Below, in pieces: positions 158-14,216 of a stretch of 28,436 nt of DNA. Every line of letters starts with the position of its first letter. Position 1 is the stretch's first letter. A program made the position numbers and the translations under genes. Below the pieces are notes generated by a model. The model did not search any database. It was not told the origin of the DNA and was given only the letters and a program-made list of their open reading frames with translations. This stretch comes from Acidimicrobiia bacterium. GTDB lineage: Bacteria > Actinomycetota > Acidimicrobiia > Spongiisociales > ZC4RG35. The DNA is taken from NCBI GenBank assembly GCA_035463935.1, contig DATHSX010000176.1, forward strand, positions 1 to 28,436, in the 5' to 3' direction.

Positions 158-817
158 TCAGCTCGCGTGACCGACGGAGGTGGGTACCGGTCGCACGAAG
201 TCCCGCCGGAGGCGGTCGATCTCTTCGCGGTATTCGCAGGCGTCGACGTGGTCATTGACCAAGCCCATGGCCTCCATGAACGAGTACACCGTGGTTGGCC
301 CCACAAAGGACCAGGCCCGGCGCTTCAGGTCTTTGCTCATGGCAGCCGCCTGCGGGGGTGGCGGCAGCGCGATCAGGGTGTCCCAATCGAGCCGGTCCGG
401 ACGGGACCGTTCATCAGGCTCAAATGACCAGGCGTAGGCCCCCAGGCTGCCGAACTCGTCGATCAGGTCGAGACACCGGCGGGCGTTGTTGATAGTCGCC
501 TCGACCTTCGCCCGGTTCCTGACGATGCCCCTGTCGCTCATGAGCCGCTCAACGCTGCGAGCGTTGAAGCGGGCGACCTTCTCGATATCAAACGATGCAA
601 AGGCTCGGCGGAAGTTCTCCCTTTTGCGCAGGATGGTGAGCCAACTGAGCCCCGCCTGAAAGCCCTCCAGGCTCAACTTCTCGAAGAGGACCAGGTCGTC
701 GGCGATCGGCCGACCCCACTCGGTGTCGTGATACCGCCGGTAGAGCGCGTCATCCGAACCCCAAGGGCACCGGGCGATGCCATCGTCACCGAACGCCACA
801 CCGCCGCCGGGGACCAT
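158..817 (-). CDS. tag: DNA-3-methyladenine glycosylase I (Tag family)
   Basis: Typical Tag motifs: RCPW, YHDTEWG, LFEKLSLEGFQAGLSWLTIL, GIVRNRAKV, FVGPTTVYSFMEAMGLVNDH (Zn ligands C/H...H/C). ATG at 817. Confidence 0.93.
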   Translation of the reverse strand: MVPGGGVAFGDDGIARCPWGSDDALYRRYHDTEWGRPIADDLVLFEKLSLEGFQAGLSWLTILRKRENFRRAFASFDIEKVARFNARSVERLMSDRGIVRNRAKVEATINNARRCLDLIDEFGSLGAYAWSFEPDERSRPDRLDWDTLIALPPPPQAAAMSKDLKRRAWSFVGPTTVYSFMEAMGLVNDHVDACEYREEIDRLRRDFVRPVPTSVGHAS

Positions 818-1596
818 CGAGCCAGGTTAGACGCCAGCCCCCAACCGCCCGGGCGAGGGTTGAGTGGATCGGTGGCGTTGGCCGCTTGCAGCGTGTAGCG
901 CCTCAGGTTGGCGACGTCACCCTCGGAAAGACGGTCACAAACCCAGTCCCAGTGCAGAGACACCCAGTCGCCCGGCCGAAGGCCGTGGACAAATCCGCGT
1001 CCGTTGAGCGCGACCGTTGCTTCCTCGGTACGCTCGACACCGGGGCGCACGACCCGACCATCGAATTCCAGGGCGCGACTGCGGACCAGGGCCGTTGTCC
1101 CGTTGGCGTGAACCACCCGGCCCCAGCGGATACGGCATCGATCGAGGATCGTCAGCGGCTCGGGTCCCTCATGTCCTGCCCGCAACAGGCCCGCCCACGG
1201 GTACACCGCAAAGACGTGGAAGTTGTGGTGGGGGAGGCCACCGGCCAGGGCGGCACTTCCCACATTGGACCAAAGCCTTCCCGCCCTCCGCTGGAATCCC
1301 TCGGAGAGAAATCCGGTCAACCGGACGGGATCGACCGCCTCCAGCAGGGGATTGCCGACCCAATAGGCGCGGACCACCTTCTCGGCGAGCGGGTCCGATA
1401 CGCGGTTGGCCTCGGCGATGAGACGCAGATAAGGAAACGCACCCTCGAACCGCTGCGCCAGGTCGACCAGGCCGCGATCGGCAAGCCCGGTGCTGCCGTA
1501 CTCGAGGAGGGCTCCCGAATCGGAGGGGCCGCAGTACCCGAGTTCGTTGGGCGGATAGGCGTAGCGGGCAAAGACGAGCGCGCCTGCATTGCTCAT
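673..1596 (-). CDS. DUF6390-type protein (hydrogenase-cluster associated); C-terminal part resembles HypC
   Basis: ATG at 1596 overlaps the EamA stop (ATGA). N-terminus FARYAYPPNELGYCGP, YWVGNPLL, PHHNFHVF, DRCRIRWG and GDWVSLHWDWVC match my recollection of DUF6390. The ORF-track extension to 2286 is a shadow of the EamA gene. The 3' end is uncertain because it overlaps tag by 145 bp. Confidence 0.75.
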   Translation of the reverse strand: MSNAGALVFARYAYPPNELGYCGPSDSGALLEYGSTGLADRGLVDLAQRFEGAFPYLRLIAEANRVSDPLAEKVVRAYWVGNPLLEAVDPVRLTGFLSEGFQRRAGRLWSNVGSAALAGGLPHHNFHVFAVYPWAGLLRAGHEGPEPLTILDRCRIRWGRVVHANGTTALVRSRALEFDGRVVRPGVERTEEATVALNGRGFVHGLRPGDWVSLHWDWVCDRLSEGDVANLRRYTLQAANATDPLNPRPGGWGLASNLARWSPAAVWRSVTMASPGALGVRMTRSTGGITTPSGVGRSPTTWSSSRS

Positions 1597-2534
1597 GAGA
1601 GAGCCCCCAGGCGTGACTGCCGTGCAACCCCGACCGCCACCGCGCACGTTCCAGCCAGGATCAGGGCGAGCCCCGCCCCGTTGGGAAGCACGGGCGCTCC
1701 CTGCAAGGCACCGGCCAGCCCGGCGGTTACCACGGCTCCGAATACCAGAACCGCCGTCACGTCGAGCGCCAACGCCCTGGCCAGGGCGGCGTACCACGTG
1801 CTGACAAAGGCAGCCAGGAGTCCACCGGTGAGCACCACCCAGCCCCATTGCCCGGGGGCGAGGGAGACCATGGTTCCGAGACGTCCGGTCCCCGCCACCA
1901 GCCCCAGCAACAGGACCAGGCCGAAGCCGAGACGACCGGCGCCCACCGTGGCCGATGGGAGCGAGCCGAGAAGACGCTTGGCTATGACGAACTCGATGGC
2001 CCAGAACAGGGTGGCGGCCAGGATCATCAACTCGCCCCCGCCGAACCGGAGGGTGGTCAAATCTCCGGCGAGAGCGACTTGACCCCCGACAAGCAGCAAT
2101 ACGGCTGTCACATGGAACAGAGTCAGACGCTCGCGCAGCACGGGGACGGCCAGCGCCGCTACCCACACCACCAGAGTCTTGTGGATGAAGCCGGCCTGGG
2201 TCGACGAGGCGCGGGCCAGGCCCTCGAAAAACAGTACGAAGGGCACGCTGCCGCCGATCAGGCCGAGTACCGCGAGCTGTCCCCATTGCCGGCGGGTCAG
2301 CCTGGGGGGGGCGGGCCGGCCGGATCGGCGGTGCCCGGCGACGATCACCAGCAGAAGAATCGTGGCGATGGCGTTCTTGGCCGTGGTGAAGACCGTGGCA
2401 TCGTCGAACCCTTTGACGGCATAGCCGTTGACGAACACCGAGACTCCGCTGATGGAAGCAGCCACCAAGGCGAGCACCACTCCCCAGGAACGGGAGTGCG
2501 GGATCTGCCAGCGGGCGACCTGGTAGTGGCTCAC
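1593..2534 (-). CDS. EamA/DMT superfamily transporter (about 10 TM, two repeats)
   Basis: About 10 hydrophobic segments. Motifs GGSVPFVLFFEGL, AGFIHKTLVVWV, LAVPVLRERL. GTG start overlaps the HypC stop (GTGA). Confidence 0.85.
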   Translation of the reverse strand: MSHYQVARWQIPHSRSWGVVLALVAASISGVSVFVNGYAVKGFDDATVFTTAKNAIATILLLVIVAGHRRSGRPAPPRLTRRQWGQLAVLGLIGGSVPFVLFFEGLARASSTQAGFIHKTLVVWVAALAVPVLRERLTLFHVTAVLLLVGGQVALAGDLTTLRFGGGELMILAATLFWAIEFVIAKRLLGSLPSATVGAGRLGFGLVLLLGLVAGTGRLGTMVSLAPGQWGWVVLTGGLLAAFVSTWYAALARALALDVTAVLVFGAVVTAGLAGALQGAPVLPNGAGLALILAGTCAVAVGVARQSRLGALS

Positions 2535-2770
2535 GGGACGGCTCCTTCGATGTCTGTCATCAGTTCAATGATTCGGCCTGCCTCTTGGGGGTCGATCCGT
2601 TGCACCGGTATGCCGGCGTTCAACAGAACCCAATCCCCTACCTGCGCCGGAGTGCCCTGGAAGGCAAGTACTGCGAGTGATACCCGCTGCGACCGGCCCC
2701 GCACATCCACGAAACCGGCGTTCCCGTCAGCATCGACCGCGATGACCCGGCCGGGCCGATTCATGCACAT
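2531..2770 (-). CDS. hypC: HypC/HybG/HupF family hydrogenase maturation chaperone (atypical)
   Basis: 79 aa with N-terminal MC(MNR)PGRV, VDVRG...VSL and QVGDWVLL(N)AG...RID, located in the hydrogenase operon. Confidence 0.85.
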   Translation of the reverse strand: MCMNRPGRVIAVDADGNAGFVDVRGRSQRVSLAVLAFQGTPAQVGDWVLLNAGIPVQRIDPQEAGRIIELMTDIEGAVP

Positions 2771-3231
2771 CCGCGACTCCCCTCCCCGGAGATCTCGGCC
2801 AGGATTTCTTCAGCCACGACTCTCGTCGCGGCGGCGACCTCGGGGGTAAGCCCCCCACCCGCCGCAAAAGTCGCCCCCGTGATCCCCACGACCACGAGAC
2901 GCTCCGGTAGTCGGCCCATCACCCGACCCAATTCCACCGCGTCGCCGAGGCTCAGCGAATGGGAGCTATCGCGTGCGGGACGGTCCGGCAGGGGACTATC
3001 GGTGACGTCGAACCTCTCGACCTTGCCGGGAGGACCTCCCGAACGAACGGCGTCGACCACAAAGGCGGCCTGAAATCCTGCCCAGCTTTCGAGCAGGCCA
3101 CCCGGCTCGCCGTCGTGCTCCAGCACATCGACTCCCGGCTGCGCGGCTCTGGCCACCAACCGGGCCACTTCCAGCCCGGCGGCGTCGTCTGACCGATAGG
3201 GGTTTCCTACCCCTACGACGAGGGTCTTCAT
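2761..3231 (-). CDS. Hydrogenase maturation endopeptidase (HycI/HoxW family)
   Basis: [32 protein letters not shown] motifs. Lies directly after the large subunit with an ATGA overlap. Confidence 0.93.
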
Positions 3232-4532
3232 TCGGGCACCACCTTCAGGTCAAGGAAGTGAGTGGCGCAGGAAATACAAGGGTCGTAGCTGCGGATGGCC
3301 TGCTCGCACTGGTGAGTGAGGGCATGCTGGTCTAGTTCAAGCCGGTCGGTCACGAAGTCCGCCAGATCGGCCTCGATCTGGGCCTGGTTCTGCGAGGTGG
3401 GGGGCACAATCCGGGCATCGGTGATATCACCCTGGTCATCGATCCGGTAGCGGTGGTAGAGGATGCCCCGAGGGGCCTCGGTGCAAGCATGCCCGGTGCC
3501 CGCCCGGGGTTCCACATCCACGAATGGCCGGTCTGGCGGCCGATAGCTGGCGATGATCCGCAAGGCCTGATCGCAGGCGTGCACGATTTCAACCGCCCGC
3601 ACGACGATGCTCTTGAACGGATTGCGCACGACCGGGCCGAATCCCACCCCGGCTGCGGCCTGACGCGCCAGGGGTGTCAGCTGCTCGAAGTTCAGGTTGT
3701 AGCGGGCCAGCGGCCCGGTCAAATAGGCACCCCGGCCACGGATTCGAGCGTGAAGAGCATTGGAATGCGCCACCTGCTCCTCCTCGAAGAACTGATAGAA
3801 ATCGCCTACCGCAATGTCGAGACCACGGTCCGAAACGATCCTCCCCCCCAGAAATGGATACTCGGTAGGGTGTCGAAGAGCGACGAACTCGTAGTCCTGT
3901 TCGAAGTCGGGAAAGTCGAATCCACCGACCAGCGCGACCGTGTCAAGGGCCGCCTGCCGGGCCCATTCGAGGCGATCGGCCAGTGGCTCGAGTTCGGAAC
4001 GGGTCGGGACTCGATAAAAGCCTCCCACCCGCACATTGATAGGGTGGATGGCGCGGCCCCCGATCAGGTTGAGGACGTCATTGCCGACCTTCTTGAGCTG
4101 GAGGCCCTGCTCAACGATCTGTTTGTGGTCGCGAGCCATTTCGATGGCGCTCTCGTAGCCGAGGAAGTCGGGTGCATGGAGCAGGTAGACATGAAGGGCA
4201 TGGCTCTCGATCCACTCCCCGCAATAGAGAAGATGTCTCAGCTCCCGGATGGGTCCCTCGACCGTGACGCCGCACGCATCCTCAATCGCCTGACAGGCAC
4301 TCATCTGATAGGCCACAGGGCAGATTCCGCAGATTCGAGCGGTAATGTCAGGGGGTTCGGTGTACTTCCGCCCTCGCAGGAACGCTTCGAAGAAACGCGG
4401 CGGCTCATAGATGCGGAGTTGGACCTGGGTGACCTTCCCGTCCCGGGTGCGAACGACCATGCCTCCTTCGCCTTCGACCCTGGCAAGGGTGTCCACCCTG
4501 AGGGTGCGGGCACCCGTCGCTTTGTGAGTCAC
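3228..4532 (-). CDS. Group 3b [NiFe]-hydrogenase (sulfhydrogenase-type) large/alpha subunit
   Basis: LARVEGEG N-terminus, L1 motif [11 protein letters not shown]2 motif DPCISCATH followed by a cleavable tail FLDLKVVPE. True start is GTG at 4532 overlapping the delta stop; the ORF-track start at 5042 is an extension. Confidence 0.95.
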
Positions 4533-5311
4533 GGGATTCTCTCGCTTTCCTGCCGAAAGGCCTCGGCGCCGGTGTTGAAGGTCCGATAGATCCGTCGAAG
4601 GTCGGGGGGCCCCATCCCCAGGCCCGCCAACCAGCCGGTCAGCGAGGGAGCATTGGCGGTGTCTGCCGGGCCGAAGCACCCGTAGCATCCTCGGGAGTAG
4701 GTCGGGCAGAGCGCCCCGCAGCCGTTTTGGGTGACGGGGCCCAGGCACGGGGTTCCGTGAGCGACCATCACGCAGACATTTCCCCGGCGCTTGCACTCCA
4801 CACACACGCTGTAGGTAGCAATGTTGGGCCTGCGACGAGCCAGGAAGGCGGACAGCACCTCTAGGAGTTGGTGGCGGTCGATCGGACACCCCCGCAACTC
4901 GAAGTCGACGGGAACGTGATCGGCGATGCCCGTCGAGTTGTCCAGTGTGGAGATGAACTCCGGATGGGCGTAAACCACATCGATGAACTCGCGGACATTC
5001 GCGAAGTTGCGCAACGCCTGAATGCCCCCCGATGTCGCGCACGCTCCGATCGTCACGAGCACCCGGGAACGTCCCCTTACCAGGCGGATCCTTTCCACGT
5101 CGTCTGGGGTGCTGATCGATCCCTCAACCAGCGACACGTCATAAGGGCCTCGTATCACTGCCCGGGAGGCCTCGGGGAAGTAGGCGATCTCCACCTCGTC
5201 GGCGAGCGTGAGCAACTCGTCCTCACAGTCGAGAACGGTGAGCTGACAGCCGTCGCACGAGGAGAACTTCCAGACGGCGAGCTTCGGTTTGGCCCGCCCG
5301 GACTCTGCCAT
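4529..5311 (-). CDS. Group 3b hydrogenase small/delta subunit
   Basis: [43 protein letters not shown]...RGCYGCFGP. No Tat signal. ATG at 5311 in a TGATG overlap with the gamma stop. Confidence 0.93.
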
Positions 5312-6180
5312 CACACCTCCCGAATCGACATCAGGCGTTCCACCCGCTGGTAGGGGAAAACCGGTCCGGCCATGCAAACGAAGTCCGGGCCAAACTGGCA
5401 GTGACCACAGTGACCGATGGCGCACTTCATGTTCCGTTCCATCGACACCCGCACCCGATCTCGCGGGATGCCCCGGTCCAGCAGCGCCCTGGCGGCAAAG
5501 CGGATCATCACCTCGGGCCCACAGATGAAGGCCGTCGCCTCCTCCGGTCGGAAGGCGACGGGGGGAATGAGCTCGGTGACTACCCCTACATGGCCATGCC
5601 AGTCCGGACCGGCGTGGTCGACGGTTACCTCCACCTCCATATCGAGGTGGCTCCGCCACGACCCGATCTCTCTTTGGAAGATCAAGTCCTTCGGCGATCT
5701 GGCACCAATCAGAACCGCCACCTGCCCGAATCGACTTCGCTCGGCCATGATCCGGTAGATGGCGGGGCGAAGGGGCGCCAGCCCGATACCGCCGGCGACC
5801 ACAACCAGATCGTTTCCAGCGGCGGCCTCGACCTGCCAGTCCGAGCCGAAAGGCCCGCGCACTCCGACCACGTCCCCCTCCCGCAACCCGCATAGGGCCC
5901 TGCTCACGGCTCCGACCGACCGGACGGTATGAATCAGCGGGCCTGCGGCTGGATCGCCGCTGATCGAGATCGGGACTTCACCCACGCCGAACGCGTAGAG
6001 CATGTTGAACTGGCCGGGTCGGTACGCCATCGGCGCGCCGTCGACAGGATCGAGGGCGAAGGTGTAGGTGTCGGCGGTTTCGCGCCTCTTCCAGCTCACC
6101 CGGTAGCGAAGGGGAACCATCGGCCGCCCAGGCGCCGGGACGGGTGAGAGGTGAACATCAGCCAGCACGACCGCCGCCAT
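5311..6180 (-). CDS. Group 3b hydrogenase gamma subunit (FAD/NAD(P)-binding, 2Fe-2S)
   Basis: [60 protein letters not shown] motifs. Start position approximate. Confidence 0.93.
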
Positions 6181-6631
6181 ACAGATCGATCAAGCGGAGC
6201 CGCGCCGACTCCAGCCTTTCTACGAGTATCTCCGCAAACCGCTTCATCAACTGGTAACCCAGCCGTGTGTCCTCCTCACACTTGTCCCGTAGACAGGCCC
6301 CGTCCAGAGCCACTACTCCGACTGGTTCCAGGGCGCGGGCATCGAACTGCCACCGATAAGGGGGAAACAGCCACGAGGCTCCGACGACGTCGGCTTCACC
6401 GGCAGTGTCGATCACCAGCGAGCCCCGGGCGGGCAGATGCACCTCAATGGCCACCCGGCCCCGACGAACGATGAAGAAGAGGTCGGCCGGATCCCCCTCC
6501 CGACACAGATAGTCACCCGTTTCGAAGACCATGTTCTTTCCGCATCCGGCGACCAGTTCCAGGTAACCGGGATCGAGGTCTTTGAAGAACGGATGGGTCC
6601 GAAGCAACTGGTCGATCGTTTCAAGGGACAT
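6158..6631 (-). CDS. Stand-alone cyclic-nucleotide-binding (Crp-type sensor) domain protein without an HTH
   Basis: [39 protein letters not shown]. 157 aa. AAGGAGG RBS before the ATG at 6631. Confidence 0.85.
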
Positions 6632-7757
6632 TGGCAACCTCCTTGCTGGAGCGGGATGGGGCCCGGAGGCCCTCGACCTCCTCGGTGAGATCAATGCCTA
6701 CCGGGCACCAGGTGATACACCGGCCACAACCCACACAGCCCGAAGTGCCGAACTGATCGATCCAGGTTGCGAGCTTGTGGGTGAGCCACTGCCGGTATCG
6801 CGACCTGGTGGAGGAGCGGACGTTGCCTCCGCCCAGGTATGAGAACTCGAGGCTGAAGCAAGAATCCCAGGTCCGCCACCGCTCGGCGATCGTCCCGGTG
6901 AGATCGCTGGTGTCCTCGACCGTGCTGCAAAAGCACGTGGGGCACACCATCGTGCAGTTGGCGCAGGTCAGACAGCGCCGGGCCACCTCATCCCAACGCG
7001 AGTGCTCGTAGCTGCCGTAGAAGAGGTCTTTGATCCCCCCGGTGTCCAGAGCCCTGCCCATGTGGGCCGCAGCCCATTCGATCACAGCATCCGCTCTTCT
7101 CCGATCCTCCGGCTGGTCGGGCCGCTGCGGCACCTCGGCCAGAATCTCCCCGCCCCGGGGCGAGCCGATCTCCACCAGGAATTCGTGCCGGTTGTCGCTC
7201 ATCAGTTCGGTGAGGGAAAGGTCGAATCCCGGCCCGGCCCGGGGTCCGGTTCCCATGGAGACGCAAAAACAGGTGCCGGCCGGGCTCCCGCAATTGACGG
7301 CGATCACAAATGCCCGCTGGCGGCTGCTGGAGTAGGTGGGGTCCGCGAACGACCCACCGGCAAAGACCAGGTCCTGAATCGCGATGGCCGCCAGCTCACA
7401 TCCCCTTACTCCAAGGAAGGCATACGGCCCCGACGCTTCTGGTCCGGCCTCGATCCCGAATCCTTCCTCTGTGCGACGACCCCGCCACAGCAGCGTTCGA
7501 GAAGGGAACAGGTACTTCTTCCACGATTGGGGACCGACGCCGTACCCGAACAGGGCCTGGTCACTCCTGGGCCGGAGCCGGTAGGTCCCCCCGTCCTGCT
7601 CATCGGTCCATCCTTTGGGGAGATCGACCACCGAGGTGACCTGGTCGTAGACGATTGCGCCCTCGCGAACCGTCGGGCCGACGACCAGATAGCCGCGTTG
7701 GCGGAGCACGCCGATGAGGGTGTCCAGCCCGGATCGGTCGATTACGGCGGTGCGCAT
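6621..7757 (-). CDS. Group 3b hydrogenase beta subunit (4Fe-4S dicluster, AsrA/HydB-like)
   Basis: GVRGCEL, VNC...[45 protein letters not shown]. Confidence 0.93.
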
Positions 7758-7766
7758 TACTTCCGT

Positions 7767-9155
7767 TCACCCACTGACTGGCTCGAACCGTGCCTGGAAG
7801 AACCGCAACTCGGGGGGCTCGTAGGTGAAACGGAGACCTTCGATCCGGTCACGCTGCTCGTAGACCGCGCTGACCGATTCGGCGACCACGTCCATGTGGG
7901 CCTGCGTGTAGACCCGCCGGGGAATTGCCAGGCGCACCAGCTCCAGCCGCGGATAGTGGTTCTCGCCGGTCTGTGGGTCCCGACCGGCCGAGACCACCCC
8001 CCGTTCCATGCCTCGCACTCCGCTGTCGACATAGAGGGCGGCGGCCAGTGCCTGGGCCGGCAACAGGGGTTGGGGGATGTGCTCGAGTATGGCCCGGGCG
8101 TCGAGGAAGACGCCGTGACCACCGATGGGGCGAACGACCGGGATCCCGGCTTTGATCAGATTGTGGCCGAGGTATTCGACCTGGCCGATCCGGGCGGAGA
8201 CGTGATCGTCGGTCTCGACCATCTCCCTGATACCCACCGCCAGGGCCGCCATGTCGCGACCCGACATGCCCCCGTACGTGTGCAGTCCCTCGAACGCCAC
8301 CAGCAGGGCTCGAGCCTGGCGGGCCAGATCACCGTCTCGCAAAGCCAGGAAGCCGCCGATGTTCACCAGATTGTCCTTCTTGGAGGAGACTGTGGCGCCG
8401 TCGGAGTACGAGCAGATCTCCCGCAACAACGAAGCCACGCTGCGATCGTGATAAGGCGCTTCCCGCTGTTTGATGAACCAGGCATTCTCGAGAGCTCGGG
8501 TGGCGTCGAGCATCACCAGAATCTGATGCCGCCGGCAGAGGTCGTAAACCGCCCGGAGGTTGGCCATCGACATGGGCTGGCCACCGGCCATATTCACATT
8601 GGTCTCGACCGAGATGTAGGGGATCCGCTCGGGCCCGTGCTGGTCGATGACCGCTTGCAGCTTGGCGAGGTCGATGTTGCCTTTGAAAGGATGATCCGAG
8701 TAGGGATCGTGGGCCTCGTCGATGATGACATCCACGAAGTTGCCACCCGCGTACTCCTGATGGAACTTGGTGGTCGTGAAGTACATGTTGCCGGGGATGA
8801 CGTCGCCCGGCTTGATGAGGATCTGGCTCAAGATGTGCTCGGCGCCCCTGCCCTGGTGGGTGGGAATCAGCTCCTCGTACCCGTACACCTCCCGCATCGC
8901 CTCCTCGAGTTCGTAATACGAGCGGCTCCCCGCATAGGCCTCATCACCCATCATCAGCGCCGACCATTGCCGATCGGACATGGCCGATGTACCTGAGTCG
9001 GTCAGCAGATCTATGTAGACATCGACCGATCGGAGGAGAAAGGTGTTGTACCCGGCCTCGACGATGGCCCTCTTCCGCTCGCCCGGCGACAACATGCGGA
9101 TGGGTTCCACCATCTTGACCTTCCAGGGCTCGGCCCAACTGCGGTGGCCTTCCAT
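7767..9155 (-). CDS. tpl: Tyrosine phenol-lyase (PLP beta-eliminating lyase)
   Basis: Collinear with enterobacterial TPL: EAGYNTFLL, DLLTDSG, GDEAYAG (catalytic Tyr), THQGRGAE, NMYFTTT, SKKD (PLP Lys), IPRRVY. It has GMERG (TPL-specific Arg) and LRFF (Phe where tryptophanase has His). AAGGAG RBS before the ATG at 9155. Confidence 0.88.
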   Translation of the reverse strand: MEGHRSWAEPWKVKMVEPIRMLSPGERKRAIVEAGYNTFLLRSVDVYIDLLTDSGTSAMSDRQWSALMMGDEAYAGSRSYYELEEAMREVYGYEELIPTHQGRGAEHILSQILIKPGDVIPGNMYFTTTKFHQEYAGGNFVDVIIDEAHDPYSDHPFKGNIDLAKLQAVIDQHGPERIPYISVETNVNMAGGQPMSMANLRAVYDLCRRHQILVMLDATRALENAWFIKQREAPYHDRSVASLLREICSYSDGATVSSKKDNLVNIGGFLALRDGDLARQARALLVAFEGLHTYGGMSGRDMAALAVGIREMVETDDHVSARIGQVEYLGHNLIKAGIPVVRPIGGHGVFLDARAILEHIPQPLLPAQALAAALYVDSGVRGMERGVVSAGRDPQTGENHYPRLELVRLAIPRRVYTQAHMDVVAESVSAVYEQRDRIEGLRFTYEPPELRFFQARFEPVSG

Positions 9156-9185
9156 CTTCTGGCTCCTTCTGACGCTCCAGGTGAC

Positions 9186-9231
9186 ATCGTGTCCGGGAGG
9201 CTGCGAACGGCCCAGGGCCGATGGTCCCACC
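9186..9231 (-). promoter_or_regulatory. Candidate DosR/DevR-like box (GGTGGGACCATCGGCCCTGG, 9231-9212) with a possible -10 (CACGAT, 9191-9186)
   Basis: Core GGGAC-N4-GNCCC matches the mycobacterial DevR box. It is centred about 42 nt upstream of the start site implied by the weak -10, in front of the tpl-hydrogenase unit. Confidence 0.5.
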
Positions 9232-9236
9232 GGCTC

Positions 9237-9251
9237 TGATCGAACCGATCA
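9237..9251. promoter_or_regulatory. Perfect inverted repeat TGATCG-AAC-CGATCA, possible operator
   Basis: 6-3-6 palindrome in the tpl upstream region, about 22 bp from the DosR-like box. Confidence 0.3.
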
Positions 9252-9319
9252 TCGCTTCGGGAGGTGATCAAAGGCGACAACCACACCGCCGCCGGTGCCG
9301 CCGGGCGGCCCGGGCCGAA

Positions 9320-9362
9320 CCCCCTCGGTCGGCTCCGCGCAACAGCCCAACCGATCGGGGGG
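9320..9362 (-). terminator. GC-rich hairpin after the 127-aa ORF, possible intrinsic terminator
   Basis: Imperfect stem of about 13 bp (CCCCCTCGGTCGG / CCGATCGGGGGG) starting 9 nt after the stop at 9371. No clear U-tract. Confidence 0.35.
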
Positions 9363-9370
9363 ATTCTCGA

Positions 9371-9754
9371 CTAATCGGTGCTGGGCACCGCCCGGGGCGC
9401 CGGCGCTCGCGAAGGGGTGTGGTCGCTCACCGAGCGATGCAGCCGGAACGTCTCCTCGGCCGAGCGGGATTCATCCACAAAGGAAAGGTACTGCCTCGCC
9501 AGTTCGGTGAACTCCCCCCCGGTGCTGGTGGCGGCGTCGCGGAAGTTGAAGCTGAGAGGATGACCGTAGCGCCAGATCTGATGGAAATCACCGCCTCTGC
9601 CGCCGGGAGCCCAAACGGGGGTGTAGGTCCCGAGGTATTCGTAGTTCGGCGGAGCGGCCCGCGCCAGGTCATCCTCGTGGTCCGCCAGCCACCTCCGGAA
9701 CTCATCCTCTTTGCCCGGTTCGACGAAGAATCCCCATTCGTAGATAAGCGCCAC
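9371..9754 (-). CDS. Hypothetical protein (127 aa), possibly a dimeric alpha+beta barrel
   Basis: Strong RBS AAGGAGG 5' of the GTG. Pattern F.V.PGKEDEFRRW...YLGTY....W resembles ABM/NIPSNAP-like barrels. Last gene after the Mo-enzyme. Confidence 0.7.
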   Translation of the reverse strand: MALIYEWGFFVEPGKEDEFRRWLADHEDDLARAAPPNYEYLGTYTPVWAPGGRGGDFHQIWRYGHPLSFNFRDAATSTGGEFTELARQYLSFVDESRSAEETFRLHRSVSDHTPSRAPAPRAVPSTD

Positions 9755-9801
9755 TGCTCCTCCTTGCCGCCCACCCTACCCAGCTAGCGAGCCCGTGCCG
9801 C

Positions 9802-12660
9802 TTAGCCGGGCAGGGCGTAAACCGGGCGAGCGGGCTTCAGCGGGCGCAGCAACCAGTAGGGCCTTCTGGTGCCGTCGGGGGAGATGCGGTCGGCGGCCCT
9901 CGTCAAGTCCAGCCAGCGCAGGTAAGCCTCTCTGGCGCGGGCGGTGTCGACGACGACGTCGCCATATTGGTCGCCTGGCTCGGCCTTGCGCACCCGCACC
10001 GCCTGGTGCCAGCAGTGCTGGCCGGAAATAGGATCGGGCTGCACCGGAAAGGTCAGGTTCTGGTGGACCCCTGACTCCGACCACCAGATCCGTTGGGTGT
10101 CGGGATCGGTCGACTCATAGGGCTCGATCCCCTGCTTGCGGCTCAGGCTCCACTCGGACCCGGAGTGGCCGAGGGCGACCGTGGCCATCGCCTGTCGCTG
10201 CCCTTGATCCTGGAGTTTCCAGCGTCCCATGTGGTGGGAGCACGCCACCACCCCCGGTCGGATGCCCTCGGTTACCCAGGCCTTGACCACGTAGTGACCG
10301 ATCTCGGTCACCACCCGCACCAGGTCGCCGGTGGAAAGGCCGAGCCGGGCCGCGTCGGTCGTGTGAATCCAGAGCGGGTTGGTGTGGGCAATCTCATCTA
10401 GCCATTTGGAATTGGCCGACCGAGTGTGAATCTGCACCGGTAGTCGAAAGGTGGAGATGAGCGGCATCTGTCCCTCCTCGAGGTTCGAGGGGTGAATGTG
10501 GCTGCGGATGTAGCCGGGAAGCGAGTGCTCGGGCCATCCCCAGTTGGTCAGGGTGGACGAGTAGAACTCCAGCTTGCCGCTCGGAGTCGGAAAGCCACGG
10601 AGGACCTTTCCGTCGATCCGCACCCCCACCGGGCGCCTCCCCTGGTCATCGGGGTCGGGGCTCGACAACGGCACAACATTGGCTTGTTCGGCGGCCGGAC
10701 CCCGGCTGTAGACCCGTCCAAACCGATCCTCGGCCACATCCACCAACTCCGCCTCCGGCACCTCCTGTTCGTGCCGGGGGCCGATACCTCTGGCTATCTC
10801 GAAGGCGCCGTAACGACGCATGTACTCGAGCGGGCTCAGACCTTCGGCACCGGCGTGTTCGGGAAGGCCCGGAACCGAGTGCTCAAACATCCAGCCGTAG
10901 TACTCGTCCACTGTCAGCTTGCGACCGGGGTCTTGCCTCGACTCGTGGTATCGCCTGATGCCGAGGCTCCCGTCGGGATCGATCCTCCAGGACAACTCGA
11001 TCCAGAATTCGTTCTCCTCCCACACCTGGCCCGGATTGGACTCTCTGGTGTCGGTGATCGCCATCCCCAACCGGCTGGCCGCCGCCCGCGCCACGGGCTG
11101 ACGGAAACCCACCCACTGCCCGTCGTACTGCTCGTAGGAGTGCACGTCGTGCCTTTCGGGCGAGTGACCCATGGGGAGGATGTAGTCGGCGAAAAAGGCC
11201 GTCTCCGACCAGGTAGGGGTGAGGGCAACATGAAGACCGATCTTGTCCTCATCGGTGAGCATCTCGATCCAGGAGAAGCCGTCCGGGTTGGTCCACACCG
11301 GGTTGTAGACCCGAGTGAAATAGACCTCGATGTTGCCCCGTCCCTCGTTCACGAACTGCGGCAGCAGAAAGGACAACTCGTGCATCGCCAGCGGATACTC
11401 GAGGGGCCAGGTGAGTTCGTTCCATACCGGCGGATGGGGAGGGCTGTGGATGGGTCGGGGCACGAACTTGTTCCAGGCGTTGGGGTACGTGCCGCCGGGG
11501 GTCGCCACCGCCCCCAGGAGGGCGTTGATCAGGAACAAGCTGCGCGATACCTGCCAGCCCCCCAGATTCCCGGCCGCGGCTGAGCGCCAGTTGTGGGACG
11601 AGAAACGGGTTCCGGCGCCGGCCACCAACCCGGCGACTTCCCGGAGGGTCGAGACCGCAACCCCCGACTCGGCCGAGGCAAACTCGAAGGTGTAGTCGCG
11701 GTAGAGCTCACTGAGAACCTCCTCGAAACTTTCGAAGGTGGAGCCCCGCTCGGGATGTTCTGCTGCCAGGTACGACTCCCAGTTCCACCAGCGCCGGACG
11801 AATTCGCGGTTGTAGGCCCCGGTCTGGATGACGTGATTGGCGATGGCCAGATTGATCGCGGCCTCTGATCCCGGATAGGGCGAAAGCCAGTGGTCGGCAT
11901 GGGTGGCGGTATTGGACAACCTCGTGTCGAGGACAATCAGCTTCGCTCCCCGGGCCTTGGCTTCAGTGATCCGCTGGGCGTGGGGGTTGAAATAGTGCCC
12001 GGCCTCGAGGTGGGCCGAGATCAGGTATATCACCTCGGCGTTGGCGTGGTCCGGGCTGGGGCGGTCGATCCCCATCCACAACTGGTACCCCACCCGGGCC
12101 GCCGAGGAGCAGACATTGGTGTGCGAGTTGTGGCCATCGACACCCCAAGAGGCCAGGACCCGCTCGGTGAAACCGTCCTCCCCGGGCCTGCCCACGTGGT
12201 ACATGACCTGGTTCGGTCTCCCCTCGACGATGGCGCTTCGCACCCGGGCAGCGACTTCGGTGAGGGCCTCTTCCCAGGAGACCGGTACCCATCGCCCTTC
12301 GCCCCGGCGACCGGCCCGTTTGAGTGGCTGCAGTATCCGGTCGGGATCGGTGATCTGGTTGAGGGTGGCCGGGCCTTTGGCGCAGTTGCGACCGCGTGAG
12401 CCGGGATGCTCCGGATTTCCCTCCAGCTTGCGGATCTGCAGGGTTTCGGGATCCACATAGGCCAGCAGCCCACAGGCGGACTCGCAGTTGAAGCAGGTGG
12501 TAGGGACCAGCATCGACCGGCGTTCGACCCGCTCCGGCCAGGCCCGGGAGTCCAATTCGGTCCACTCGTCCCATCGTTCCTTCGGCGGGTAAGAGGCCAG
12601 GTGGATGCCGCTGGGGCCCTGGTAGAAGGTCTCGTCAGGACGAGCGGGGTCGTCTGTCAT
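9802..12660 (-). CDS. Mo/W-bisPGD (DMSO reductase family) catalytic subunit, PsrA/PhsA-like, no Tat signal
   Basis: 4Fe-4S motif TCFNCESAC...NCAKG, RILQPLKR, HNSHTNVCSS (candidate Cys ligand), HFNPH, FADYILP, TPSGKLEF, HTRSAN, C-terminal QAVRVRKA. 952 aa from the ATG at 12660 (ATGA overlap); the ORF-track start at 13455 is an extension. Confidence 0.92.
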   Translation of the reverse strand: MTDDPARPDETFYQGPSGIHLASYPPKERWDEWTELDSRAWPERVERRSMLVPTTCFNCESACGLLAYVDPETLQIRKLEGNPEHPGSRGRNCAKGPATLNQITDPDRILQPLKRAGRRGEGRWVPVSWEEALTEVAARVRSAIVEGRPNQVMYHVGRPGEDGFTERVLASWGVDGHNSHTNVCSSAARVGYQLWMGIDRPSPDHANAEVIYLISAHLEAGHYFNPHAQRITEAKARGAKLIVLDTRLSNTATHADHWLSPYPGSEAAINLAIANHVIQTGAYNREFVRRWWNWESYLAAEHPERGSTFESFEEVLSELYRDYTFEFASAESGVAVSTLREVAGLVAGAGTRFSSHNWRSAAAGNLGGWQVSRSLFLINALLGAVATPGGTYPNAWNKFVPRPIHSPPHPPVWNELTWPLEYPLAMHELSFLLPQFVNEGRGNIEVYFTRVYNPVWTNPDGFSWIEMLTDEDKIGLHVALTPTWSETAFFADYILPMGHSPERHDVHSYEQYDGQWVGFRQPVARAAASRLGMAITDTRESNPGQVWEENEFWIELSWRIDPDGSLGIRRYHESRQDPGRKLTVDEYYGWMFEHSVPGLPEHAGAEGLSPLEYMRRYGAFEIARGIGPRHEQEVPEAELVDVAEDRFGRVYSRGPAAEQANVVPLSSPDPDDQGRRPVGVRIDGKVLRGFPTPSGKLEFYSSTLTNWGWPEHSLPGYIRSHIHPSNLEEGQMPLISTFRLPVQIHTRSANSKWLDEIAHTNPLWIHTTDAARLGLSTGDLVRVVTEIGHYVVKAWVTEGIRPGVVACSHHMGRWKLQDQGQRQAMATVALGHSGSEWSLSRKQGIEPYESTDPDTQRIWWSESGVHQNLTFPVQPDPISGQHCWHQAVRVRKAEPGDQYGDVVVDTARAREAYLRWLDLTRAADRISPDGTRRPYWLLRPLKPARPVYALPG

Positions 12661-14213
12661 GCCAGTGGTACGGCCTGCGCCGATTGGATGTATGCGTGCT
12701 CGTAAGCCAGCAGCCCGGCCAGAGCCGGTAGCGCCGCCCAGGCCCCGGCCCAGGGGCCGGCCAGCCCGAAGGCCGAGAGGATGACACCCGGCCAGAAGGA
12801 CGAGCTGTAGCGGCCGGTGGTCATCTCCCACACCGCCAGATGGGCGTGGGCGGTCCCGTGGGGCAGGGTGACCTCGCCCCAAACCAGGAGGAGGTGGACC
12901 AGCGAAGCCAGGGCCAGCGTCCAGCCCAGGGCCGGACCGGCCTCGTTGCCGGTGAGGGCGTCGGCCACGACCAGGGTGGCGGCGCCGGCCAGCACCGCCT
13001 GCATCGCCATGTGGGGCGGAAGCAGCGGACTCTGCCAGAGATCCCTGGCCTTGGATTGGGCGAACAGATAGGCGGTGTACACCGCCGACATCAGGGCAAG
13101 AGGGATGCCGGGCACCGCCGCCAGTTGGCGCAAGGTCTCCGATCCGGTCCAGGCGGAGAGCAGGTGCGCGACCAGCACGCCACCGTAGCCGAGGATGAAC
13201 ATCGCCCCCTTCACCAGCCAGCTCCTCCACTGCGGTCGGGTGAATAGATAGAAGAAGCGCTCGGGATGATCGAGGTCCCAGACCAGGACCGCCCCCGTGA
13301 CACCGAGGAAACCCAAGCCGACCAGGGGGGTGACCCAGACCACCAGGTCGCTGGTCCAATCGAGTAACCCGGTGAGCACCAGCAGCAGCCCAACCAGATA
13401 GACACCGGCACCAATTGCCTTGGCCCAGGTGTAGAGGCCGACCCGCCAGTCCCACGGCGCCTTATGGGGAATGTCATAAGAGAGAAGGGCCGCCGCCGAG
13501 GAGTTGGAGCGGCCCCCGGGATGGCCGGACCGAATCCCCGCACCCTGCTCGCTCCACATGTAAAGGTCGCCGCCAGGACGGGTAGCTGCAATGGGATCGA
13601 GAGTCGCCTGATGGGCTCCCTGGTAGAAGAGCTTGGGATAGGTCTCCTTCTCGGGACGCCTCACCGTCACCGGCTGGCGTTGCACGATCCCTGCCACTCG
13701 CGAGAACGGATCGGACAGATCGCCCACCAGAATCGCCTCGGTGGGGCATACCACCACGCAGGCTGGTTCCAGCCCGATGTCGAGCCGGTGGGCGCAGAAG
13801 TTGCACTTCTCGGCGGAATGATCCTCCGGGTTGATGAAGATGGCATCGTACGGACAGGCCGCGATGCACGCCTTGCAGCCGATGCAGATCCGCTTGTCGA
13901 AATCGACGATCCCGTCTGCGCGCCGATACATCGCGGCTGTGGGGCAGGCGGCCACACAGGGCGGGTTGGCACACTGATTGCACCTCGTCACCTGGAAAGC
14001 CCGACGGGCCTGGGGGAAGTAACCAACGTCGACCGACTTGACGTAGGTGCGGGTCACCCCGACCGGAACCTGGTTCTCCGACTTACAGGCGGTGGTGCAG
14101 GCGTGACACCCGATGCAGCGGGTCTGATCGATGACCTTCACCCATTCCGGCGGTCTGAGCGGGGCAAACGCCGCCGGGGCCGCTTCGAATTGGGAGGTGC
14201 CAGCGACCTCCAT
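12657..14213 (-). CDS. Fusion of a four-cluster ferredoxin (PsrB/NrfC/DmsB-like) to an NrfD/PsrC-type membrane anchor
   Basis: N-terminal half: CIGCHACTTAC, CNQCANPPCVAACP, CIGCKACIAACPY, KCNFC...PACVVVCP. C-terminal half: about 8 TM helices with WDLDHPERF and SWLVKG (NrfD motifs). Confidence 0.9.
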   Translation of the reverse strand: MEVAGTSQFEAAPAAFAPLRPPEWVKVIDQTRCIGCHACTTACKSENQVPVGVTRTYVKSVDVGYFPQARRAFQVTRCNQCANPPCVAACPTAAMYRRADGIVDFDKRICIGCKACIAACPYDAIFINPEDHSAEKCNFCAHRLDIGLEPACVVVCPTEAILVGDLSDPFSRVAGIVQRQPVTVRRPEKETYPKLFYQGAHQATLDPIAATRPGGDLYMWSEQGAGIRSGHPGGRSNSSAAALLSYDIPHKAPWDWRVGLYTWAKAIGAGVYLVGLLLVLTGLLDWTSDLVVWVTPLVGLGFLGVTGAVLVWDLDHPERFFYLFTRPQWRSWLVKGAMFILGYGGVLVAHLLSAWTGSETLRQLAAVPGIPLALMSAVYTAYLFAQSKARDLWQSPLLPPHMAMQAVLAGAATLVVADALTGNEAGPALGWTLALASLVHLLLVWGEVTLPHGTAHAHLAVWEMTTGRYSSSFWPGVILSAFGLAGPWAGAWAALPALAGLLAYEHAYIQSAQAVPLA

Positions 14214-14216
14214 CAA

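Follow-up and report, generated by a model that had tools for sequence, protein, structure and literature searches.

What is a gene for tyrosine phenol-lyase (TPL) doing at the head of a hydrogenase operon? The question is raised by a 28.4-kb window of DNA, which is the whole of contig C176 of G000, a metagenome-assembled genome (MAG) from the class Acidimicrobiia (2.67 Mb in 533 contigs; completeness 86.8%, estimated contamination 3.3%). On the minus strand of this window, tpl ends 9 nt before hyhB, the first gene of a group-3b-type [NiFe]-hydrogenase operon, and is itself preceded by a palindromic box of the DosR/DevR type. On balance, we favor the reading that two hypoxia-responsive units were joined in a lineage-specific operon fusion, with tpl as its promoter-proximal gene. 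The parts (TPL, group-3b hydrogenase, and DosR-type operator) are known; what is new is their arrangement and the hint that, in some Acidimicrobiia, TPL and the hydrogenase are members of a single hypoxia response. A full-text literature search for TPL together with hydrogenase found no paper on such a linkage.

The tpl-hyhB joint

The unit from the presumed control region of tpl to the end of the hydrogenase operon has the following features:

9156..9370, minus strand: intergenic region between orf127 and tpl, 215 nt; probable promoter region of the tpl-hyh unit, with the box and an AAGGAG ribosome-binding site
9230..9213, minus strand: DosR/DevR-type palindromic box GTGGGACCATCGGCCCTG with the core GGGAC-N4-GGCCC, starting 75 nt before the ATG of tpl
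9155..7767, minus strand: tpl, tyrosine phenol-lyase, 462 aa (TIGR02618, PF01212)
7766..7758, minus strand: tpl-hyhB spacer ACGGAAGTA, 9 nt, from direct reading of the sequence
7757..6621, minus strand: hyhB, Fe-S beta subunit of a group-3b-type [NiFe]-hydrogenase, 378 aa (PF17179 Fer4_22, E 5e-33)
6631..6158, minus strand: gene for a cyclic-nucleotide-binding-domain (cNMP) protein, 157 aa, between hyhB and hyhG (PF00027, E 2e-13)
6180..5311, minus strand: hyhG, FAD/NAD(P)-binding gamma subunit (PF00175, PF10418)
5311..4529, minus strand: hyhS, small (delta) subunit, with its start at ATG 5311 (PF01058)
4532..3228, minus strand: hyhL, [NiFe] large (alpha) subunit (PF00374)
3231..2761, minus strand: hycI, maturation endopeptidase gene of the HycI/HyaD type (TIGR00072, 112 bits with a cut-off of 47; PF01750)

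All genes from tpl to hycI are encoded on one strand and are either separated by 9 nt or overlap by 1 to 23 nt, which leaves no space within the unit for a terminator plus a promoter. The cNMP gene, which has an AAGGAGG in front of its start codon (ATG 6631), overlaps the 3' end of hyhB by 11 nt, and the start of hycI overlaps the stop codon of hyhL by 4 nt. The only non-coding stretch of more than 50 nt on the minus strand between psrA and hycI is the 215-nt region in front of tpl. By its position, tpl heads the hydrogenase unit, as the first-pass annotation of this DNA had proposed, and the sole DosR-type box precedes tpl, whereas none precedes hyhB.

The distance of 9 nt between the two genes, also claimed by that annotation, is borne out by the sequence: the minus strand reads GTGGG TGA ACGGAAGTA ATG CGC, with the stop codon of tpl at 7769..7767 and the start codon of hyhB at 7757..7755. 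The start of tpl (ATG 9155) lies 7 nt behind an AAGGAG, and its homologs align from residues 1-5; about 120 homologs of HyhB align from residues 1-6 of the protein that starts at 7757. Both start codons are thus supported by homology.

An artifact of assembly or binning, by which the genes would be joined only in this MAG contig, might be suspected from the fragmentation and the estimated contamination of G000 and from the lack of both genes in its congeners. It is refuted for the joint itself, and we give it practically no credence. Contigs from two different studies, both independent of the source assembly, bridge positions 7757-7767 and are at least 99% identical to the window across the joint; one of them (run X2; 2788 nt) spans 6011-8798 with 18 differences, the other (run X3; 204 nt) spans 7710-7913 with 1 difference. 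The joint is therefore real DNA. The stretch 6900-8700 is present, in whole or in part, in 20 runs from 12 studies, nearly all of them soil metagenomes, and the GC content is much the same on both sides of the joint (tpl, 63.1%; hyh, 64.3%; window, 65.0%).

The further claim that there is no room for a promoter holds for the 9-nt gap but not for the 3' end of tpl, which is a possible promoter site. From there, hyhB might be transcribed independently, with tpl as a mere neighbor. A Shine-Dalgarno-like element in front of hyhB (GGAAG in the spacer ACGGAAGTA) is weak and only 2 nt from the ATG, but it is present. A scan of positions 2500-10200 for sigma-70 promoters and intrinsic terminators was uninformative, with counts at or below those expected from shuffled sequences, and gave no sigma-70-type match in 9156..9370. 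Because the sigma-70 consensus may describe promoters of such organisms poorly, this result proves little against a promoter inside tpl. Nevertheless, independent transcription appears unlikely: the 400 nt upstream of hyhB contain no DosR-type site above 6.8 bits, and the 9-nt gap is too short for a terminator.

Identity of the lyase and the hydrogenase

Judged from its sequence, tpl encodes a genuine TPL. Its product passes TIGR02618, if narrowly (724.9 bits; cut-off 720.7), matches PF01212 with E 3.5e-79, and remains far under the cut-offs of the tryptophanase equivalogs (502 and 555 bits). Its best relatives of solved structure are the TPLs of Citrobacter freundii and Erwinia herbicola (EC 4.1.99.2; PDB 2EZ1, 1TPL, and 1C7G), which align over the full length (E 1e-176), followed by tryptophanases (E 1e-137 or weaker). 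The TPL-defining residues reported in the first-pass annotation are indeed present: F36, Y71, R100, T124, D214, K257, M379, R381, F448, and F449 (C. freundii numbering) are all kept. An alignment to 2EZ1 shows that the conservation extends to the segments around K257 (SSKKD) and Tyr71 (GDEAYAGS), which we take to be the lysine that binds pyridoxal 5'-phosphate and the catalytic tyrosine, and to the segments FTTT, MERG, and LRFF with Thr124, Arg381, and Phe448, which presumably form the phenol-specific pocket.

Despite these likenesses, the protein has clearly diverged from its enterobacterial counterparts. Met288 of the C. freundii enzyme is replaced by Leu, and two segments, KVKMVEP (residue 12; the KxKMVEP segment) and FEGLHTYGG (residue 288), differ from those of enterobacterial TPLs. 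Both segments had been pointed out as divergent before, which is true of the comparison with enterobacteria; among environmental TPLs, however, they are normal. FEGLHTYGG occurs in 26 of the 29 Acidimicrobiia-type TPLs, and Y/FEGLHTYGG in 58 of 60 TPLs from other phyla. The TPL loci closest to that of the window come, according to their titles, from MAGs of Acidimicrobiia or Actinomycetota; a look-up of the exact protein found no record. Enterobacterial tpl is a single gene under the control of TyrR, whereas the tpl of the window heads a hydrogenase operon behind a DosR-type box.

Throughout much of the order there is a second beta-eliminating lyase paralog (47-51% identical), whose best score is with the tryptophanase subfamily model; in G000 it is partial and located at a contig end (C249:6207-7148, minus strand). 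One relative, G038, a genome flagged as unpublished that is included in the 41-genome tallies for both genes, has a single tryptophanase-like paralog match; none of our claims rests on this genome.

The hydrogenase operon comprises the full set of genes for the beta, gamma, small, and large subunits and the maturation protease, in the same order as in about 120 related loci. In NCBIfam, the beta, small, and large subunits are nearest to the sulfhydrogenase subunits of Pyrococcus (ShyB and HydB for HyhB; ShyD and HydD for HyhS; ShyA, E 3e-83, for HyhL); all these matches are under the equivalog cut-offs, and the assignment to group 3b, which is based on such family-model matches, is tentative. 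The best match of HyhG is PRK08345 (hydrogenase subunit gamma), followed by AsrB (anaerobic sulfite reductase) and the gamma subunits of sulfhydrogenases, again with scores under the equivalog cut-offs. HyhB has two CxxCxxC motifs, and HyhL contains the NiFe-ligating CxxC pairs (RICGIC at residue 68; DPCISCATH at residue 419, followed by a short C-terminal tail).

In its four subunit types, their order, the endopeptidase gene, and the NiFe cysteine motifs, the operon resembles those of the Mycobacterium smegmatis hydrogenase Hyh (hyhBGSL) and the Pyrococcus sulfhydrogenases. It differs from both in its leading gene, tpl, which is found in this lineage alone, and in the cNMP gene between hyhB and hyhG, which is shared by most of its relatives among Acidimicrobiia and metagenomic sequences. 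The encoded cyclic-nucleotide-binding protein lacks a DNA-binding domain and occupies the same place in most related group-3b-type operons (loci L030-L035, L123-L151, and L152-L231). It appears to be a conserved fifth component of the system, possibly a regulatory subunit.

A linkage confined to one lineage

The linkage between tpl and the hydrogenase is not conserved among relatives; it recurs in none of about 119 TPL loci and in none of 92 hyhB loci with upstream sequence. The TPL loci include nine orthologous loci from 40 relatives, whose flanks of 6-12 kb contain no hydrogenase gene, the best 80 loci from one genome per GTDB species, none of which contains hyhB, and 30 loci from a class sample of 400 Acidimicrobiia genomes, none of which abuts hyhB. 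On the side of the hydrogenase, 10 hyhB loci of the relatives, the best 29 of the class sample, and 80 metagenomic loci (upstream sequence of 1 kb or more is available for 53) were examined; none has a TPL gene upstream of hyhB, and the order is hyhB, usually the cNMP gene, and then hyhG-hyhS-hyhL-hycI. A linkage restricted in this way is what the first-pass annotation itself had named as speaking against its proposal. The adjacency is lineage-specific and represents a local operon fusion, not a conserved pathway.

The restriction is apparent also at close range. In G211, the genome with the closest TPL (87% identical), tpl and hyhB are on separate contigs, and five genomes of the same genus as G000 have neither gene. 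One of these congeners, G001, shares the genes upstream of orf127. The features that flank the tpl-hyh unit in the window are as follows:

14216..12657, minus strand: fused psrB-psrC gene
about 12600..9802, minus strand: psrA, gene for a PsrA/PhsA-like molybdopterin subunit
9754..9371, minus strand: orf127, a conserved open reading frame (ORF) of 127 aa, no Pfam family
2286..673, minus strand: gene for a DUF6390 protein, 537 aa, downstream of the hyh operon (PF19927, E 1e-85)

The psrBC-psrA genes of G001 and the window have amino acid identities of 74-81%, but the genes that follow psrA differ, and neither tpl nor hyh is found beside them in G001. Synteny (window 9802-14216, minus strand; G001 locus L120, 13850-18126) stops at the psrA stop codon, so that everything from orf127 through the DUF6390 gene is a variable insert relative to G001.

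Both the uniqueness of the linkage and its location in a variable region would fit a neutral accident of gene order, in which the hyh operon dropped behind tpl. The genes might then be cotranscribed, with no significant shared regulation or metabolic link, and the palindrome in front of tpl would be due to chance or to an unrelated factor; its absence from most TPL genes points in the same direction. Such an accident is a possible explanation, though a doubtful one, since it has no place for the observations on the box that are presented below and for the co-occurrence of TPL and Hyh within families.

A further explanation involves sulfur metabolism. The first-pass annotation had considered a C-S lyase role that supplies sulfide or cysteine persulfide to a neighboring TusA/DsrE/Psr-like system. 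In this model, cysteine or S-substituted cysteines would be the substrates, and the sulfide or persulfide formed would go to the products of the nearby Psr-like and rhodanese genes and to a "sulfhydrogenase". TPLs do beta-eliminate S-alkyl-cysteines in vitro, psrBC-psrA and orf127 are located upstream of tpl on the same strand, and a gene for an MBL-rhodanese protein is nearby. However, the psr genes of G001 manage without tpl or hyh as neighbors, the residues of the phenol pocket are all kept in the TPL of the window, and the DosR-type box stands between tpl and the psr unit. Moreover, 89 TPL loci with flanks of 6-12 kb lack the sulfur genes of the window (TusA and DsrE were not among the genes searched), except for a weak PsrB-like match in three Phycisphaerales and one MBL-rhodanese-like match in another, which are isolated matches in other phyla. 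The sulfur proposal finds no support in these data, and we consider it very improbable.

Homologs of orf127 (56-60% identical) are present in G018, where the gene is convergent with the TPL gene and directly follows it (locus L021, 7441-7767), and in G002, a congener without TPL (L121, 9248-9574). The only clue to the identity of the protein is a weak NIPSNAP-like lead from a protein atlas. The sole other TPL locus found with a hydrogenase alongside is that of a member of Saprospiraceae, UBA6168 (L094, 6001-9886), where a NiFe hydrogenase with 27% identity to HyhL is encoded on the opposite strand, convergent with tpl; this arrangement is probably a coincidence.

At the other end of the insert, the long reading frame of the DUF6390 gene is overlapped by an ORF in another frame (1593..2534). 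Because homologs align from about residue 8, the long frame is taken to be real, which makes the shorter ORF doubtful. DUF6390 homologs adjoin hyhB-hycI also at other loci (L030, L033, L034, L037, L039, L126, L135, L140, L141, L143, and L144), where they are located either divergently upstream of hyhB or downstream of hycI.

A DosR-type box and a candidate hypoxia response

Many hyhB genes of Acidimicrobiia are preceded by a palindrome that resembles the operator of the mycobacterial hypoxia regulator DosR. In 37 other Acidimicrobiia, no hexamer is as enriched as GTCCCT over the 150 nt that precede hyhB; it is present at 9 of these loci (0.9 expected). The core GGG(A/C)C-N4-G(G/T)CCC, with at most one mismatch, is found in 14 of the 37 when the 200 nt in front of hyhB are considered, compared with 3.5 +/- 1.7 in dinucleotide shuffles (maximum of 8 in 500), and most of the G(G/T)CCCT half-sites begin 37-64 nt ahead of the start codon. 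A scoring matrix was trained solely on these hyhB upstream regions of other Acidimicrobiia.

With this matrix, the box in front of tpl (9230..9213) scores 15.9 bits, which places it about 12th among the 5.3 million positions of G000, and it is the sole exact match to the core in the 215-nt intergenic region. The closest TPL ortholog, that of G211, has a near-identical box (GGGACCATCGACCC) at -73, indicating that the box belongs to tpl. Among other TPL genes, 6 of 28 have a box at -60 to -84, whereas the mean of shuffled sequences is 0.46; 3 of 30 in the class sample have one as well. A neutral accident leaves unexplained why the box should rank so high with an independently trained matrix, why it should be conserved in the closest ortholog, and why the hyhB of the window should have lost a box still present in 14 of 37 relatives. 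The TPL locus of G211 (L282, on contig G211:C6, 6630-9073) continues behind tpl with a 164-aa protein of no known family and a MarR-type regulator, joined by 4-nt overlaps, and contains further boxes at 2045, 8308, and 10604.

The core of the box (GGGACCATCGGCCC, 9228..9215) matches the DosR palindrome GGGAC-N4-GTCCC at 9 of 10 positions. In this core, GGGAC-N4-G(G/T)CCC, it resembles the operator of Mycobacterium tuberculosis DosR/DevR, whose published consensus is TTSGGGACTWWAGTCCCSAA (PMC2275270); it differs in the flanks, which are A/T (AGGGNC...GNCCCT) instead of S...S. A DevR ortholog is encoded on contig C164 of G000 (2340-3056; locus L253). It scores 224 bits against M. tuberculosis DevR (3C3W), with the next family at 149, and its recognition helix EKTVKNYVS, which covers the positions aligned to K179, K182, and N183, is identical. 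A second DevR-like regulator is encoded on contig C191 (L252, 1981-2622), where a box (2645-2662) directly follows its stop codon.

According to the fusion reading, an ordinary tpl of Acidimicrobiia would have retained its DosR/DevR-type operator, some 75 nt ahead of the ATG, and a conserved group-3b hyh operon, lacking the box so often found in front of hyhB in relatives, would have landed 9 nt behind the tpl stop codon. Transcription of the entire unit would most likely start from a promoter in 9156-9370, and the DevR ortholog would activate it when oxygen is depleted. Translation of hyhB, whose Shine-Dalgarno-like element is poor, would probably be coupled to the termination of tpl. The hyh operon would in this way have been captured by the regulated promoter of tpl, which should be tolerable because the hyh operons of relatives often appear to respond to the same type of box.

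The metabolic side of this reading is plausible. TPL would convert tyrosine to pyruvate, phenol, and NH3 without any need for oxygen when the route that depends on 4-hydroxyphenylpyruvate dioxygenase (HPPD) stalls. G000 encodes the O2-dependent HPPD and two genes of the 2-oxoacid:ferredoxin oxidoreductase type; a search for homogentisate dioxygenase gave a marginal match (21.7 bits) that was not used. Hyh would re-oxidize NAD(P)H with the formation of H2, as described for the Hyh of M. smegmatis. The latter, a group-3b hydrogenase, is induced when O2 becomes limiting (PMC2799521); according to one report, DosS/T-DosR activates it, and it disposes of reductant from NAD(P)H as H2 (bioRxiv 10.64898/2026.10.24.761498). 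Reductant derived from pyruvate could then leave the cell as H2. TPL and Hyh would be coexpressed members of one hypoxia response rather than an obligate enzyme pair. Hypoxic tyrosine fermentation with H2 as an outlet, the other model of the first-pass annotation, remains plausible and gains indirect support from the shared type of box, the DevR ortholog, and the co-occurrence of the two enzymes.

This co-occurrence is evident in the class sample, where HyhB is encoded in 26 of 36 genomes with TPL and in 50 of 364 genomes without it, and it persists on stratification by family (common odds ratio about 5; Mantel-Haenszel p = 0.003), but the counts are confounded by genome completeness and by kinship, which remains within families even after stratifying. 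Several other points also weigh against the fusion reading. The adjacency is found nowhere else and gives no sign of selection for the linkage. Among the runs first listed as holding the stretch, none is recorded as RNA, and the two RNA-type runs yielded only short exact pieces of hyhB (7018-7218 and 7251-7401) and tpl (8153-8303 and 8082-8191); X20 is classified as RNA only by guess (share 0.26), X25 is a metatranscriptome (share 0.05), DNA carry-over is possible, and none of the pieces represents a transcript that spans the joint. With regard to expression, the pieces weigh neither for nor against it. The scoring matrix was seeded with the DosR core, so that the discovery of the motif was partly biased. 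The box is absent from 27 of the 30 TPL genes in the class sample, and the idea that it is a general feature of TPL genes was rejected, given that only 3 of the 30 carry it. The link between the box and the DevR ortholog is a prediction of binding from sequence. Lastly, when the annotated genes behind the 20 best box sites in G000 were inspected, the textbook DosR regulon (universal stress protein [USP], nitroreductase, and Hsp20) was not recovered, a result that is not diagnostic.

The genes found behind the best sites belong instead to PGA_cap, CMD, PFK, DUF5661, Bmp, LiaF-TM, acyl-CoA dehydrogenases, ABC ATPases, RelA/SpoT, ADH, and DUF302, and the predicted regulon of G000 differs in this respect from that of mycobacteria. 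The best AGGGNC-N4-GNCCCT palindromes cluster on contig C482 (L232; 4260-4277, 4729-4746, and 6901-6918) near genes for PGA_cap, a CMD-family protein, phosphofructokinase, and DUF5661. Together with the regulators on C164 and C191, these palindromes suggest a candidate hypoxia regulon that is unlike the mycobacterial one.

Group-3b hydrogenases are now viewed as the main means of reductant disposal for soil aerobes under hypoxia, and M. smegmatis is almost the only species for which the substrates that feed this fermentation are known. Were TPL coinduced with Hyh, these substrates would include aromatic amino acids, and these widespread Acidimicrobiia would release phenol and H2 where soil is depleted of oxygen; the organism of the window is present in soil metagenomes of at least 12 studies. 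More tentatively, some soil Acidimicrobiia might have a DosR-type hypoxia regulon that comprises TPL as well as the H2-evolving group-3b hydrogenase, and a fermentation of tyrosine to phenol, acetate, and H2 might serve the survival of these nominal aerobes. In that case, the operon fusion described here would be the most explicit genomic trace of that fermentation. Even an accidental fusion would provide a clean case of an operon without its own operator that was captured by that of a neighbor.

The same two enzymes are encoded close to each other in a member of another family of the order (G124; locus L281, contig G124:C47, 3120-12555), where the hyh operon, a histidine kinase gene, a tandem-USP gene, and tpl are located within 9 kb. 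The locus was considered and rejected as a second co-operonic case because the histidine kinase and tandem USP genes intervene on the other strand. It represents a looser "dormancy island", with a 15.9-bit box about 130 nt upstream of the hyh operon.

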